A DNA stretch of 64,000 nucleotides from Candidatus Aminicenantes bacterium (GCA_003141555.1 PLMN01000012.1:139487-203486); one strand, 5' to 3'. Shown: positions 6,517-16,457, counted from the stretch's first letter. Translations and numbers: made by a program. Notes: generated by a model not told the origin, from the sequence alone.

Positions 6517-6602
6517 GAAATCGGTGACACGAAATCGGTGACATGACCCAATTCTCTTAATTTGGGATCGTGTCACCGATTTCCTGCCGCGTCACCGATT
6601 TC
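6517..6602. repeat. Palindromic array of four copies of GAAATCGGTGACA (two direct, then two inverted)
   Basis: Copies lie at 6517-6529, 6531-6543, 6571-6583 (rc) and 6590-6602 (rc). A related copy is at 625-637. Confidence 0.45.
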
Positions 6603-10753: not shown

Positions 10754-12076
10754 TCAGGTCATACGATATACGCCGCGATCGCGGACCACGCACCCCACGG
10801 GACGGCCCGCGCGCAGGAGCTCGGAACAATGGGAGCAGGCCACGCAGGCTTTTCGCGGGGGCAGCGCTCCCATCCGCCGCAGGTCGGCCGCGAAATCGGG
10901 GGCGGCAAAGGCCAGGCGGCCGAGGCCGGCAAAGGTAATCCGTTTTTTCCCGACGGCCCCGGCGGCGACGAACGGGAAATATTGCCGCAGCCAGGAAAAG
11001 CCCGTGCCGACGACGGGCAGGTCCGGGAATGAGGCCTGAAGGCCGGCTGCGGCGTTCAAGAGGCGGGCGACGCCCGCCAGCGGATGCTCGGTCGGAACCG
11101 CACCTCCCGCCGGTGGGCGATCGAACGGGCGGCCGAGATAAGGCTTGAAGGCGGGGATGCCCAGCGTGACGTTCAGCAGATCGAGTCCGCGCGCCCTGAG
11201 CTCCCGGACGACATGAACGGCCTCGGCGAGGTCGGGCGTCTCGGGTTCGCCCGCGGAGCCTCCGAAGCCGTAGGGCACGGCGAGTCCGTCGCAAGCGCCC
11301 AGCCGGACGGCGAGGACGAGATCGGGCCGCCGCCGCTTGATCTCGGCCGCCGTTTCGATGAGGAATCGGGCCCTGTTCTCCAAGGGCCCGCCGTAGCGGC
11401 TCTCCGTCCGGGCGCGGGCGGCGAGGAGCTCCCCGACGAGGTAGCCGTGGCAAGCCTTGAGATCGACGCCGTCAAAGCCGGCCTCGGCGGCCGTCTCCGC
11501 GGCTTCGGCGAAGCGCGTCCGGAGATCGTCGAGCTCGGCGTCCGTGATCAGCGGGAATTCGTGGTCGGTCTTCCGGAGCGGGTCGAGGAAGGGATTGCGC
11601 TGGGCGGCGGCGGGCGAGGGCCGTCCTCCGCGCTTGGCGAAGCGGCCGGTGTGCGTCAACTGAAGGATGAGCAGGGGACCGGGGCCGGGAGTGCCGCTTG
11701 CTTCCGCGGCGGTCCGGGTTTCTGAAACCAGCCGCTTGAAAGTCGGCAGATTGGAAGGGCTGATCAGGAGCTGATGGGCGTTTGACCGTCCGCCTCCGAC
11801 GACGGCCGCCGCTTCGAACCAGATCAGGCCCGCCCCGCCCGCCGCGTATCTTTTATAACGCCGGAAGGTCAGGGGGCCGGGCGCCCCATCCTCGCCGGCG
11901 TCCGCGCCTTCCATCGGCTGGATCACGAGCCGGTTGGGCACGGTCAGGCGGCCGAGGGGATTCGGAGCGAACAGGCTCTTGATATCTTGGGCGTAGGGAA
12001 GATCGAGCTTTAAGGCCAGGGCCTTGTCCCGCAGCTCATCGCCGGATCGGAACCGGAACCGCTCGTGGCCCGTCAT
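10754..12076 (-). CDS. Old Yellow Enzyme family NADH:flavin oxidoreductase
   Basis: OYE-like TIM-barrel motifs (LVIQPMEGADA, GFDGVDLKACHGYL). An ATGA overlap with the upstream gene places the start at MTGHERF. Confidence 0.75.
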   Translation of the reverse strand: MTGHERFRFRSGDELRDKALALKLDLPYAQDIKSLFAPNPLGRLTVPNRLVIQPMEGADAGEDGAPGPLTFRRYKRYAAGGAGLIWFEAAAVVGGGRSNAHQLLISPSNLPTFKRLVSETRTAAEASGTPGPGPLLILQLTHTGRFAKRGGRPSPAAAQRNPFLDPLRKTDHEFPLITDAELDDLRTRFAEAAETAAEAGFDGVDLKACHGYLVGELLAARARTESRYGGPLENRARFLIETAAEIKRRRPDLVLAVRLGACDGLAVPYGFGGSAGEPETPDLAEAVHVVRELRARGLDLLNVTLGIPAFKPYLGRPFDRPPAGGAVPTEHPLAGVARLLNAAAGLQASFPDLPVVGTGFSWLRQYFPFVAAGAVGKKRITFAGLGRLAFAAPDFAADLRRMGALPPRKACVACSHCSELLRAGRPVGCVVRDRGVYRMT

Positions 12077-13062
12077 GTCTCTCCGGCGATCTTCCGGACC
12101 GCCTTCAGGTCCCTCCGGACGCGGGCTTGGCAGGCTTCGGGCCAGCGCGCCCGGTCCAGGACGGCGAGCTCTTTCGCCTGGACGAGCTCCCCGGTGCGGA
12201 CCGCGATCTTCAGCAGGTCGGCGAGCTCGGAGACGTTCAGGTCCGGAAATTTCCCCAGGAAGGCCGGATTGAAGATCGGGAGGGAAAACGATCCGCCGTG
12301 GTCTTCGATGGACAGCCTGATCTCGCGGGGGAGCGAGGACAGGACCTCGAAAATCCGGGCGAGATCGACCAGGCCTTTGCCCGCTTCGGCGGTGAACGAG
12401 GTGAGGCCGTCGGGGCCGAGGAGCAGGCCGCCGTCCTTGACGTGCGTCGTCACGACCCACGGGAGGACACGGCGCGTCGCGGCCACGGGCTCCTCGAGCA
12501 TGGTCAGGAGATTCATCGTGTCGAGACAGATGCCGATCGGGCCGCCCGGCTCGGCGCCGCTCATCTCGAACGCGCGGAGGAGCTCGAAGGTCGTGAATTC
12601 AAAATGGGTTTCGACCGCGAGGACGACGCCGAGATCGCGGTAAACGGGCACTTGGGCGCTGAGGCCGCGGGCCGTCGCCTCGAGGAGATCCTCGGTCGGG
12701 AGGGAATCGTCCTTCCAGCGCATCAAGCCACCCGAGCAGGAGCGGATCGTTTTCACGCCCAGGAAGGCGGCCTGCTCGGCGACGCGCCGGTTGGCCGCGG
12801 CAATGTCCCTCGGCGCCCCCGTCGCCAGGTCGCAAGGGATGTGTTGGCCGCCGCCCCATTCCAGATAGAGGCCATTTTGGCGGGCATAATCCCGGAGCTC
12901 GGCAAGGAATCCCCGATCCTCGGCCTGGGCGGGAGGCTCGGAGAACTGGACTCCGCGGGCATCGTTGAGGAGCGCCCAATCCAGCAGCTCGAACGGGTCG
13001 AGAGCCAAGGGCTTGAGGCTGTAGGCGTCGATGCCGACCTTGAAGGGCTTCATGGCTTCCAT
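12073..13062 (-). CDS. Sugar phosphate isomerase/epimerase (xylose isomerase-like TIM barrel)
   Basis: AP-endonuclease-2/xylose isomerase-like barrel signature (VGIDAYSL..., HVKDGG). Start chosen at MEAMKPFKV. Confidence 0.65.
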   Translation of the reverse strand: MEAMKPFKVGIDAYSLKPLALDPFELLDWALLNDARGVQFSEPPAQAEDRGFLAELRDYARQNGLYLEWGGGQHIPCDLATGAPRDIAAANRRVAEQAAFLGVKTIRSCSGGLMRWKDDSLPTEDLLEATARGLSAQVPVYRDLGVVLAVETHFEFTTFELLRAFEMSGAEPGGPIGICLDTMNLLTMLEEPVAATRRVLPWVVTTHVKDGGLLLGPDGLTSFTAEAGKGLVDLARIFEVLSSLPREIRLSIEDHGGSFSLPIFNPAFLGKFPDLNVSELADLLKIAVRTGELVQAKELAVLDRARWPEACQARVRRDLKAVRKIAGET

Positions 13063-13089
13063 CTCGATTCTAGCACTATCTAACGTTCT

Positions 13090-13450
13090 GGGCGAGGGGG
13101 GAGAGGGCCGTCGGCACGCCGGTTTCCCCGGCGCGGAAACCGGCTCGGGTTCCGGCTCGCCGCCAGCGCCGCTTCGCGTCGCTGGTCCATGCCGGCTCGC
13201 CTCCACACGGCCTCCTTGCCCTCTCCCCCCTCGCCCTGCCCGCGGTCTTCTAGGCAAGTCCAAGGGTGATCGCCGGCCGCGCAGGGTCATCCCCAAGGCC
13301 CGCATAGCGGAGGGGGGGCCCCCCGGCGAAGCAGGGGGGGAACCGACGGGACTGGTTCCCCAGCGGGCCGGGGGATGCCCTGCGGAAGGCCGGCTGAAAC
13401 TCGGGTTTAGCGGGCGGGGAAGCCGGCGTGCCGACGGTCCTTTCCCCCCG
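13090..13450. repeat. GC-rich structured region with nested inverted repeats (possible cis-regulatory RNA or palindromic element)
   Basis: GGCGAGGGGGGAGAGGGC (13091-13108) pairs with GCCCTCTCCCCCCTCGCC (13219-13236). Internal hairpin CCGGTTTCC...GGAAACCGG. GCCGTCGGCACGCCGG pairs with CCGGCGTGCCGACGG roughly 320 nt apart. Hairpin GGGGAACC...GGTTCCCC. Confidence 0.3.
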
Positions 13451-13459
13451 AGCTCGGCG

Positions 13460-13488
13460 TTGACTTCGGATTACGGCTTGAATATAGT
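13460..13488 (+). promoter_or_regulatory. Sigma70-type promoter (TTGACT-N17-TATAGT)
   Basis: Near-consensus hexamers with 17-nt spacing lie about 40 nt upstream of the ATG at 13530. Confidence 0.4.
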
Positions 13489-13529
13489 CGAGGGAACTTT
13501 TGTGATGACACGTCTTGGGAGGAGGCCTC

Positions 13530-16457
13530 ATGCGTAAACCCCTGTCGCTTTTGCGTTGGACCTGCGTTTTCCTGATGATCGCTCTTTGGCCGCTGACCCG
13601 GGCGTCGGGGCAGGCGACGGGCAAGAAACCCATCACCTACGATGCATACGCCGGGTGGCGCTCGATCCAGGGCACCCAGCTCAGCCGCGACGGCATCTGG
13701 CTGGCCTATGCTCTGGTCGCCCAGGAAGGCGACGGCGAGCTCGTCGTCCGCAACCTGAAGAACGACAAGGAACACCGGCATCCGCGGGGCACGTCGCCGG
13801 TCATCACCTTCGACGGGAAATTCGCCGTGTTCACCATCGTCCCGCCCCAGGACGAAGTGGACAAGGCCAAGAAGGACAAGAAGAAGCCCGAGGAGATGCC
13901 CAAAAACGGCCTTGGCATCATGAATATCGCTACCGGCGAGGTCTCGACGGTCGAACGGGTAAAGAGCTTCAAAGTCGCCGATGAATCGGGCGCCTATGTA
14001 GCCTATCTTATGGAGCCCCCGCTCAAGGCGCCGGCAGATAAGGAGGCCGCGGTCAAGCCGGAGCCGGCGGCCAAGACCCTGCCCGCCAAGGAACCCGCGG
14101 CCAAGGACGAGGCCAAGAAGAAGAAGGAAAAGAAGCACGAGCCGGGCAACGACCTGTTCGTCCGGGAGCTGGCCACAGGGACCTTGACCGCGATTAAAGA
14201 GGCCACCGACTACGCCTGGTCGAAGAACGGGGCGCACTTGGCCGTGGCCGTGATGTCCAAGAAGCCCGAGGACGACGGCCTCTGCCTGTTCAGCGCCAAG
14301 GAGCCGCAGAAGGGCGCCGTTTCGCTGATGAAGGGCCAGGGGACTTATAAATCGATCGCCTTCGACGAGAAAGGGGCGCAGCTGGCCTTCGTGAGCGAGC
14401 GCGACGAATGGAAGAACGACGCTTCGGCCTTCAAGCTCTATTATTGGACCGAGGGGACGCCGGCCGCGGTCGAGATCGCGTCCGGCGCGACCAAGGGCAT
14501 GCCCGCCGGCATGGCCGTGGGCGAGAACGGGCGGACGAGCTTCGCCAAGGACGGGAGCAAACTTTTCTTCGGATACGCGCCCGCTCCCAAGGCCGAGCCC
14601 GAGGACGCGCCGGAGCCGGTGAAGGTCGACATCTGGACCTGGAAGGACCCCGAGTTCCAGCCGGCGCAGAAGGTCCAGGCGGACGAGGAGAAGAAGCGGA
14701 GCTTCCAGGCCGTCATTCACCTCAAGGAGAAAAAGCTCGTTCCGCTGGCCGGTCCCGATCTGCCGAACGTGATCTTGTCCGAAGAGGCGAAGCTCGCCCT
14801 GGGCACGTCGGAAATCCCGTACCGTCAGCTCGTCTCCTGGGACCAGAGCTATGATGATGTCTACCTTGTCAGTCTCGCGGACGGGACGCGCAAGAAGATC
14901 CTGGAGAAGTCGCCGAATTCGGTCACGATTTCGCCGGGGGCGAATTACCTCCTCTACTATGTGGATCAGGACCGGAGCTGGTACTCCTACCGCGTCCTCG
15001 ATGGCAAGACCTTCAACCTGACGGCCAAGCTCGGCGTTCGGTTCGAGAACGAAGAGCACGACACGCCGGACGATCCCCGCCCTTACGGCTCCGCCGGGTG
15101 GACCGAGGGCGACAAGACCGTGCTCCTGTACGATCGTTATGACATCTGGGAAGTCAAGCCCGACGGCTCCGGCGGCCGGAACGTTACGAACGGCGTCGGG
15201 CGGAAAAACGCCCTGACGCTCCGATATGCGCGGCTCGACCGCGAGGAGCGGGCCATCCCGACCAAGTCGTCCCTCTGGCTCATGGCCACGGACGAGAAGA
15301 CAAAAGCCTCGGGCTATTATCGGATGACCCTGTCCGCCACGGGCGATCCGGTCAAGGTTGCCATGCTCGATAAGCGGTTCGGGGGCCTGCAAAAAGCCAA
15401 GAATGCCGAGACATTCGTGTTCACCCTGTCCCGCTTCGAGGAATTCCCCGACCTGTGGGTGAGCGGTCCGGGGCTGACCGATATGAAAAAGGTGAGCGAC
15501 GCCAACCCGCAGCAGGCCCAATATATTTGGGGGAAGTCCGAGCTCATCCACTACGTCAACGACGACGGCCTCACCCTGGAAGCGCTCCTGATCAAGCCCG
15601 AGAACTTCGATCCCTCGAAGAAGTACCCCCTGATGGTCAACATCTACGAGAAGATGGCCTCCGGGCTGCACAGCTATGCCACCCCGGCGCCCGGGACGAG
15701 CATCAACATCGCCCGCTATGTCAGCAACGGCTACGTCATCCTCCAGCCGGACATTGTTTACGAGATCGGCTATCCGGGCTCGAGCGCCCTGAAGTGCGTC
15801 CTGCCGGCCGTCCAGAAGATTATGGGTGAAGGCTACATCGACCCGAAGCGGATCGGCATCCAGGGCCACAGCTGGGGCGGCTATCAGATCACCTACATGA
15901 TCACCCAGACCGACATCTTCGCCGCCGTCGAGGCGGGCGCCTCGGTCTCGAACATGACCAGCGCCTACGGTGGGATCCGGTGGGGGGCGGGAGTGTCCCG
16001 GGCGTTCCAGTACGAAAAGACGCAGAGCCGGATCGGCGCGCCGCTCTGGATGCGGGCCCTGCAGTTCATCGAGAATTCGCCCCTGTTCTGGGTCGAGCGG
16101 GTCAAGACGCCGTATTTGACGATCCACAACGATGAAGACGACGCGGTTCCCTGGTATCAGGGGATCGAGTTCTTCTCGGCCCTGCGCCACCTGGGCAAGG
16201 AAGCTTACATGTTCGTCTACAACGGCGAAAAGCACGGCCTGCGCGATCGGGAGAACCAGAAGAACTGGACTGTCCACATGGATGAGTTCTTCGACCACTA
16301 CCTGAAAGGCGGGCCGCTTCCGTCCTGGATGGACAAGGGCGTACCGTACCTCGAAAAGGGCAAGCGGGACGTCACGCCGCTTTTCAAGAAAGAGACGAAG
16401 AAGTCGTCGGGCGGCTCTCCGGAGGACGGCGATAAGCGCGATCAGCCGGGACGTTGA
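13530..16457 (+). CDS. S9 family serine peptidase (prolyl oligopeptidase/dipeptidyl peptidase-like) with N-terminal beta-propeller
   Basis: Signal peptide. GHSWGGYQ nucleophile elbow. The C-terminal catalytic domain carries the H of the triad (GEKHGL). GGGAGGAGG RBS. Confidence 0.8.
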   Translation: MRKPLSLLRWTCVFLMIALWPLTRASGQATGKKPITYDAYAGWRSIQGTQLSRDGIWLAYALVAQEGDGELVVRNLKNDKEHRHPRGTSPVITFDGKFAVFTIVPPQDEVDKAKKDKKKPEEMPKNGLGIMNIATGEVSTVERVKSFKVADESGAYVAYLMEPPLKAPADKEAAVKPEPAAKTLPAKEPAAKDEAKKKKEKKHEPGNDLFVRELATGTLTAIKEATDYAWSKNGAHLAVAVMSKKPEDDGLCLFSAKEPQKGAVSLMKGQGTYKSIAFDEKGAQLAFVSERDEWKNDASAFKLYYWTEGTPAAVEIASGATKGMPAGMAVGENGRTSFAKDGSKLFFGYAPAPKAEPEDAPEPVKVDIWTWKDPEFQPAQKVQADEEKKRSFQAVIHLKEKKLVPLAGPDLPNVILSEEAKLALGTSEIPYRQLVSWDQSYDDVYLVSLADGTRKKILEKSPNSVTISPGANYLLYYVDQDRSWYSYRVLDGKTFNLTAKLGVRFENEEHDTPDDPRPYGSAGWTEGDKTVLLYDRYDIWEVKPDGSGGRNVTNGVGRKNALTLRYARLDREERAIPTKSSLWLMATDEKTKASGYYRMTLSATGDPVKVAMLDKRFGGLQKAKNAETFVFTLSRFEEFPDLWVSGPGLTDMKKVSDANPQQAQYIWGKSELIHYVNDDGLTLEALLIKPENFDPSKKYPLMVNIYEKMASGLHSYATPAPGTSINIARYVSNGYVILQPDIVYEIGYPGSSALKCVLPAVQKIMGEGYIDPKRIGIQGHSWGGYQITYMITQTDIFAAVEAGASVSNMTSAYGGIRWGAGVSRAFQYEKTQSRIGAPLWMRALQFIENSPLFWVERVKTPYLTIHNDEDDAVPWYQGIEFFSALRHLGKEAYMFVYNGEKHGLRDRENQKNWTVHMDEFFDHYLKGGPLPSWMDKGVPYLEKGKRDVTPLFKKETKKSSGGSPEDGDKRDQPGR

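Follow-up and report, generated by a model that had tools for sequence, protein, structure and literature searches.

A mosaic of two dispersed hairpin-forming repeat families in the spacer between divergent isomerase-like and S9 peptidase genes of a Candidatus Aminicenantes bacterium

Based on a comparative analysis of a 64,000-nucleotide stretch of DNA from a Candidatus Aminicenantes bacterium (the window), we propose that dispersed hairpin repeats, arranged as a mosaic, very probably make up the structured region between two of its divergent genes, which would then not be a riboswitch or attenuator specific to this locus. The spacer contains a complete copy each of two elements, which we call Q and P, and, adjoining P, a piece of another Q in inverted orientation. 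P and Q are two dispersed hairpin-forming families, undescribed in the resources searched, and a strongly conserved asymmetric core sets these families apart from classical REPs and MITEs. A preliminary description of this DNA had listed stacked palindromic repeats among its candidates, and the copies of the two families together with the fragment support that suggestion. The features of the spacer and its flanks, numbered from the first nucleotide of the window, are as follows.

12073-13053, minus strand: gene for a xylose-isomerase-like TIM-barrel protein (Pfam PF01261; orthologues share the start MKPFKVG)
13067-13080, minus strand: putative extended -10-like block of the isomerase operon, GATAGTGCTAGAAT, 13 nt before the ATG (consensus reading)
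13086-13240, plus strand: Q element, a hairpin repeat of ~150 nt (nhmmer E = 2e-32, with a profile whose seed alignment, A4, itself includes the window copy)
13090-13108 with 13218-13236: outer stem of Q, 19 bp, perfect
13119-13127 with 13135-13143: conserved internal hairpin of Q
13237-13266, no strand assigned: spacer ('tail') accompanying P, on the opposite side of P in L068/L069
13267-13402, plus strand: P element (covariance model, 58.4 bits, E = 5e-13)
13271-13294 with 13370-13394: arms of P
13297-13303 with 13363-13369: P3 helix of P
13304-13318: junction of P, ATAGCGGAGGGGGGG
13319-13339: P4 hairpin of P, with a GCGAAGC loop
13337-13344 with 13354-13361: P5 hairpin of P, with the loop GACGGGACT
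13404-13453, minus strand: partial inverted Q copy, 5' arm (A'; nhmmer places Q model positions 13-52 at 13453-13414)
13460-13488, plus strand: predicted sigma-70-type promoter of the S9 gene, TTGACT-17-TATAGT (consensus scan)
13530-16457, plus strand: gene for an S9 (prolyl oligopeptidase family) peptidase (Pfam PF00326)

The spacer extends from 13054 to 13529, between the isomerase start at 13053 and the S9 start at 13530, and the earlier statement that some 400 bp of it are non-coding is borne out. An open reading frame of 410 aa that runs up to 13305 is an over-extension of the isomerase-like gene, because the homologues measure 325-372 aa, mostly 325-339, and the nearest of them, which is 100% identical and 326 aa long, starts at the ATG at 13053. 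A coding role for the spacer was rejected on the same homologue starts and because copies of its elements elsewhere vary by indels and occur in either orientation. In the order given by the called genes of relatives, the isomerase-like gene is followed in its operon by Oxidored_FMN, PFK, FAD_binding_2 and adh_short. The S9 gene is preceded by a ribosome-binding site, GGAGGAGG, at 13518-13525, and an identical S9 protein is present on the Logan contig L001.

The inverted repeats of the spacer are real and far above chance. The perfect repeat first reported as 18 bp in fact has arms of 19 nt (GGGCGAGGGGGGAGAGGGC at 13090-13108, its complement at 13218-13236), and it encloses the reported hairpin with a 9-bp stem (CCGGTTTCC/GGAAACCGG, 13119-13143). 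A second long-range pair is longer than had been claimed, with 46-nt arms at 13096-13141 and 13404-13449 that are 83% complementary. The G-run/C-run palindrome (G7C6, at ~13312-13324) and the 8-bp-stem hairpin GGGGAACC(9 nt)GGTTCCCC at 13337-13361 are likewise present, and the positions given in the preliminary description were correct to within one base. Perfect inverted 18-mers less than 400 nt apart occupy six k-mer positions in the window, against none in 100 dinucleotide shuffles of the 64 kb; when the inverted repeats of the window with arms within 400 nt are ranked by arm length, the 46-nt pair comes first and the 19-nt perfect pair tenth. Folding of 13063-13529 departs from that of shuffled sequence with z = -4.9 on the plus strand and -4.5 on the minus strand, and since both strands fold similarly beyond the shuffles, this was a first hint of palindromes at the DNA level and not of an RNA made from one strand. 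Mapping of the copies of both families assigns every one of the inverted repeats and hairpins listed above to Q, to P or to the inverted Q fragment. Both the G7C6 palindrome and the GGGGAACC/GGTTCCCC hairpin belong to P, and the A' fragment at 13404-13453 is complementary to 13096-13141, which produces the long-range inverted repeat with 46-nt arms.

What kind of element is P? A covariance model built from 42 other copies finds 13267-13402 as its sole significant match in the 64 kb, and blastn of the spacer, nhmmer and the covariance model recover no further P or Q copy in the window. The core of the element, ~80 nt long, reads ..CCCCCG, UAGCGGAGGGGGG, the P4 hairpin, the P5 hairpin (GGGGAACC GACGGGACU GGUUCCCC), GGGG.. 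and CGGGGG... Around it lie arms of 30-60 nt, which are wholly different between subfamilies and keep their complementarity. In the commonest subfamily each arm is a 20-nt palindrome, GGGCGGC-N6-GCCGCCC, present as an inverted pair; the arms of the window copy are not self-palindromic. The tetranucleotide G/ATAG, located inside the hairpin beside P3, is nearly invariant. A 21-mer of P (13339-13359), whose invariance is partly set by the search pattern, is identical in three lineages and occurs in at least 120 JGI metagenome contigs, and many of the matches listed lie at contig ends. P4 hairpins capped by GCGAAGC, which we take to be an exceptionally stable DNA mini-hairpin, are seen in the window (13325-13333) and in L068, L070, L103 and L160. 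The octamer CCGACGGG forms the 3' strand of P4 and recurs in the P5 loop, so that two alternative pairings are possible, and RNAalifold picked the alternative one.

Neither family corresponds to an entry in the resources that we searched. The Rfam scan proposed in the preliminary description returned no significant family: in Rfam 15, scanned with E up to 10, no match to 12800-13800 was better than E = 5; the whole window and 15 other P-bearing loci had no family match at the gathering threshold; and a canonical P copy, with E up to 10, had only chance-level matches. P and Q are absent from Rfam 15, from viral contigs and from a plasmid collection (IMG/VR and PLSDB in the case of P), the core sequences of P have no match in the literature searched, and nothing specific on repeats or RNA motifs of Aminicenantes was found there.

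Copies of Q occur at unrelated sites in L067, L068, L088, L100, L134 and L175; in L067 the element separates the second gene downstream of the operon start from the third, and in L068 it sits in another spacer. Its outer stem and internal hairpin covary, with compensatory changes in 13 of the 27 predicted pairs, and wobble counts on the plus strand amount to ~4 G-U versus 8 A-C. The composite of a Q 5' half, a linker and P that is found in the window has the same arrangement in L068/L069. A wider search for the repeat-mer, also proposed beforehand, gave 63 matches to the 19-mer among the GTDB representatives (which do not include the source genome); these are singletons from unrelated phyla, none of them shows the inverted pair, and they are chance or coding matches.

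The dispersal of P is evident from several contigs that carry 2-4 copies and from same-subfamily copies such as those in L089 and L171, which are ~97% alike and have different flanks. There is insertion polymorphism, in that near-identical copies are found at non-homologous flanks and the presence of P and Q at the orthologous spacer varies by lineage. Additional copies elsewhere had been named in advance as an outcome that speaks against an RNA specific to this locus. Sorted by spacer type with a composition-scored, crude gene caller, 79 copies of P fall into 29 divergent, 15 convergent and 35 co-directional spacers, and in the last group P points with the genes in 17 cases and against them in 18. 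Clustering of the open reading frames near P copies yields no recurrent protein family; a single large cluster is an artefact of spurious reading frames that run through P itself. We count it against a repeat-element reading that the 64-kb window contains just one P and one Q.

Orthologous loci, retrieved via homologues of the isomerase-like protein, allow the history of the spacer to be followed. L068/L069 and L070 (79-80% protein identity) have the same divergent gene pair, 378-519 nt apart, with blocks in common with the window. The segment 13238-13386 is present in L068/L069 at 88.7% over 150 nt in reverse orientation relative to the flanking genes, and the P unit of L070 is oriented as in the window. 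Synteny over ~27 kb links the window to a 'Candidatus Aminicenantales bacterium' MAG, with 56-82% protein identity. This MAG and related contigs retain the complete operon, their spacer bears no relation to that of the window, and the 20 kb around the orthologous operon yield no significant match to P or Q; hence the operon did not have this block as an ancestral leader. In the MAG (L194:9097-10978) the S9 gene is missing between a B12-binding-domain gene and the isomerase operon, and therefore one lineage has acquired or lost the gene and, with it, this spacer. In the closest relative for which data exist (88% protein identity) the orthologous spacer (L067:1-286) carries a different long hairpin, with Q-like ends (GGGCGAGGGGGATGGGC ... 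GCCCCATCCCCC) and an unrelated interior, which points to replacement or insertion having occurred more than once at the same palindromic site.

Nesting and flipping are recurrent in these families. In L134 and L175 a Q stands in place of the left half of the P core, and in L085 the core of P has the opposite orientation within its outer arms from that in copies of the L171 type. The apical P4 hairpin is interrupted by a third recurrent module (R-type; ~130 nt, with CTTGCCACCCCCTACCCCCTCCGATAATCGGAGGGGGG in its sequence) at L133:1250-1600, L102:2880-3230, L180:2140-2470 and L181:9180-9600. Directly adjoining a tRNA gene, L096:10700-11240 has four P-like units in tandem, repeated every ~147 nt, and a promoter scan of this array finds no sigma-70-like promoter per unit. 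The elements also coincide with the ends of assembled contigs: L001, which is identical to the window, breaks at 13179, inside Q, and the contigs L065/L066, from closer relatives, stop within CCCCCTCGCCC, the Q-type end. P and Q repeats explain the assembly breaks at this spacer in these uncultured sediment bacteria.

The structure of P is maintained across divergent copies, and its core and arms behave differently. Across the 42 copies 91.9% of the cells are paired, versus 86.7% in shuffles and 39-59% in slid controls, and compensatory changes affect 16 of 40 pairs, 15 of these in the arms. The check for covariation that had been recommended at the outset is thus positive for P as well as for Q. 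The wobble counts and folding figures given next are only indicative, because the copies are non-independent and the 21-mer was fixed by the search. Read on the plus strand, the core helices P3-P5 of the 42 copies contain 22 G·T versus 1 A·C, and P4 alone, in 80 copies, 20 versus 2, where some of the G·T cases are terminal extensions into the G-run. The arms have 32 G·T versus 44 A·C, and a looser method gives 266 versus 195 overall. In 86% of copies the plus strand folds the more stably, with a mean advantage of 8.8 kcal/mol, and the consensus alignment folds at -114.6 on one strand versus -112.9 kcal/mol on the other. Since the core helices accept G·T and almost never A·C, one strand appears to act single-stranded: the core would be used as a single strand of one polarity and the arms as symmetric DNA palindromes. 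In REP/RAYT and IS200/IS605 systems, DNA is processed as a hairpin in one strand, and the asymmetry of the P core fits such a DNA element or an RNA equally well. Concerted evolution of the palindromic arms could also mimic the covariation of P and Q.

What do these observations imply for the identity of the block? On a narrow balance of belief, we favour P and Q as non-autonomous REP/REPIN/MITE-like elements that move via a single-stranded hairpin and are prone to nesting and flipping. The reading that the preliminary description placed first, a 5' UTR riboswitch or attenuator of the minus-strand isomerase operon, draws, as would a cis-regulatory leader of the S9 gene, on a long, highly structured region directly upstream of both genes. 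We consider it extremely improbable, and the arrangement of the promoters bears on this directly. An extended -10-like block (TGCTAGAAT / TGCTAATAT / TGCTAAGAT / TGCTAAAGT) is conserved in the window, L065/66, L067 and L068/69 at 8-20 nt before the MKPFKVG start and downstream of the structured block, and similar -10-like blocks occupy the same position in L070 (TGTTAAGAT) and L194 (TGATAAAAT); the simple promoter scan does not call it. In the first four of these the C-rich end of a Q-type hairpin lies 17-18 nt further upstream, at the -35 position (compared over window 13054-13097, L065:1-34, L067:236-286 and L068:5950-6000). The isomerase operon thus seems, from these motifs, to have a very short leader that begins at an extended -10 close to the ATG. 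On the other side, the near-consensus sigma-70 promoter reported at 13460-13488 is the sole consensus match in 12900-13700, is conserved in L068/L069 and is recognisable in L070. Since it is bracketed by the -35 regions of the two conserved divergent promoters, the block 13090-13453 is probably in neither 5' UTR, if those promoters are used. Against a leader also speak the lack of any Rfam match at E up to 10, the lack of a terminator-like site at the spacer, the occurrence of the same elements beside unrelated genes in both orientations, the inversion of P in L068/L069 and the absence of P and Q from the same spacer in distant Aminicenantales relatives that keep the operon. The block is most likely a passenger and not the leader of either operon. 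A DNA inversion switch, or inverton, in which the arms serve as recombination sites and a recombinase flips the centre and so alters the divergent genes, would account for the opposite orientation of P in the window and L070 versus L068/L069, for the flipped core of L085 relative to L171-type copies, for the location of the block between two divergent promoters and for the contig breaks at it. We judge this very unlikely, given that the invertible part excludes both promoters and contains no promoter-like site, that no recurrent recombinase gene is seen beside P copies, and that the opposite orientations observed come from separate lineages; long palindromic arms of any kind lead to this outcome as well through recombination or template switching, with no need of a dedicated switch.

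A different possibility, and the only form in which the structured sRNA of the preliminary description would still fit, is that P, and perhaps Q, form a multi-copy family of independently functional structured RNAs, in which the conserved three-helix core would serve to bind a protein or ligand, the arms would form the closing stem and P4 would be an expansion stem of variable size, and the window copy would be one paralogue transcribed from the plus strand. The strongly conserved core with covarying arms, the acceptance of G·U but not A·C in the core helices and in P4, the greater stability of the plus strand in most copies and a P4 length that varies like the variable stems of known RNAs all agree with this possibility, as does the tRNA gene that adjoins the tandem array. 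Two P copies on one contig are only ~75% identical, each with its own compensated arms and an intact core, and such diverged paralogues that keep their structure are also expected from purifying selection on a functional RNA. We nevertheless hold an RNA family to be possible but doubtful. No consensus promoter in the orientation of P is found in the window or in the L096 array, nor is a conserved terminator; the arms have no strand bias by either count; the consensus folds equally on both strands; orientation with respect to neighbouring genes is random and P is flipped at an orthologous locus; no Rfam family corresponds to it; and contig breaks and nesting are typical of repeats. Other known classes were considered and set aside: an attC site (the order of the R boxes is wrong), a retron msr/msd or a bridge RNA (no adjacent reverse transcriptase or recombinase gene), an omega RNA (no HEARO match in Rfam) and an intrinsic terminator (no T-run).

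If P and Q are REP/REPIN/MITE-like mobile elements, as we favour, we envisage the following scheme. The elements would spread within and between Aminicenantes-type genomes with the aid of a putative trans-acting enzyme, which would recognise the strand-specific single-stranded core, composed of UAGCGGAGGGGGG, the variable P4 and the GGGGAACC-GACGGGACU-GGUUCCCC hairpin. They may land preferentially in or beside other palindromes, which would generate nested 'Russian-doll' arrangements, and the palindromic arms would let the asymmetric centre flip. We infer that mobility proceeds via a single-stranded hairpin intermediate, that a partner enzyme exists and that the elements have no local regulatory role. 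The flanks of six same-subfamily P copies contain no consistent target-site duplication, no insertion sequence with P- or Q-type ends was seen in ~1 Mb of loci, and among the loci compared no clean empty site for P or Q was identified.

How does this architecture compare with known systems? The closest parallels are the REP/REPIN/BIME repeats of Proteobacteria, which are mobilised by RAYT (TnpA_REP, HUH Y1) transposases (Bertels & Rainey 2011, PMC3116915). Like P and Q, REPs and REPINs lie outside genes, are rich in GC and exist in multiple copies, each an imperfect palindrome that folds into a long hairpin, and several element types may be combined in a mosaic within one spacer, as in BIMEs. 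The commonest P subfamily, with its 20-nt palindromic arms in inverted pairs, resembles a REP doublet; P also has a conserved tetranucleotide (GTAG/ATAG) and, in its core, a strand-specific tolerance of G·T that fits hairpin processing of one DNA strand. Unlike in REPs, the best-conserved part of P is its ~80-nt asymmetric centre, and the REP-like arms are what differs between subfamilies; the GTAG of P lies inside the hairpin beside P3 and not at the 5' edge, where REPs, palindromes of 20-40 nt, carry theirs; and the host phylum is Acidobacteriota/Aminicenantes, with sequences unrelated to described REPs. A cognate RAYT is often flanked by its repeats; beside P no recurrent gene is seen, and no transposase, RAYT or other candidate enzyme has come to light. 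The second parallel is with bacterial MITEs, for example Correia/NEMIS, ERIC, RUP and Nezha (reviewed by Delihas 2011, PMC3184786). The elements measure 130-220 nt, are non-coding and have complementary ends of 30-60 nt, which is the size and the kind of terminus found in MITEs; in common with MITEs they have terminal inverted repeats, are intergenic at unrelated loci in either orientation, fall into subfamilies and break assemblies. They depart from MITEs in that P is one hairpin throughout with a core far better conserved than its ends, and in that neither a target-site duplication nor a parent insertion sequence sharing their ends could be demonstrated for P and Q.

A further comparison is with palindrome-associated transposable elements (PATEs) and the ends of IS200/IS605 elements. 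As in these, the function of P would rest on sub-terminal hairpins formed by a single DNA strand, and wobble pairs would be accepted on that strand alone. In IS200/IS605 the left- and right-end hairpins are alike, whereas P4 and P5 of P differ from each other; moreover, no tnpA or tnpB relative was seen near P and no TTAC-like cleavage motif was identified in it. Among RNAs, the Acido-1 and Acido-Lenti-1 motifs of Acidobacteria in Rfam are orphan structured RNAs without gene association, and P shares with them a covarying structure, an occurrence in Acidobacteriota-related genomes and the lack of a consistent neighbouring gene. P differs in that Rfam, these motifs included, gives no family for it at E up to 10; it also exists in multiple copies, combines with other repeats in nested arrangements, changes orientation, and has arms without the strand bias of an RNA. 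It is conceivable, if rather unlikely, that P represents a new class of multi-copy structured nucleic-acid element of Aminicenantes-type bacteria, be it an RNA with a function or a substrate that a mobilisation system not yet described uses in single-stranded form. The core would then be recognised in one polarity, the alternative pairing of CCGACGGG would be built in, the apex of P4 would dock Q and R, and the nested palindromes would result from hairpin-targeting insertion and not from ordinary REP/MITE biology.

The repeat finding removes a false riboswitch lead and adds two abundant undescribed repeat families from a poorly studied phylum, one of them with a conserved strand-specific multi-hairpin core. 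If this core is the recognition site of an enzyme or a functional RNA, the covariance model and the more than 100 copies will help to find the partner protein, and a study of the nesting and flipping of hairpin elements becomes feasible. If P and Q are ordinary REP/MITE-like passengers, their value lies mainly in the annotation and assembly of Aminicenantes genomes. Elsewhere in the window, the intergenic stretches 394-636 and 6518-6601 contain clusters of a motif, (G)AAATCGGTGACA, in direct and inverted copies. The motif has 9 matches at no more than 2 mismatches versus 3.0 expected by chance, and several of the strongest inverted repeats of the window consist of it. This arrangement looks like an array of operator-type binding sites.
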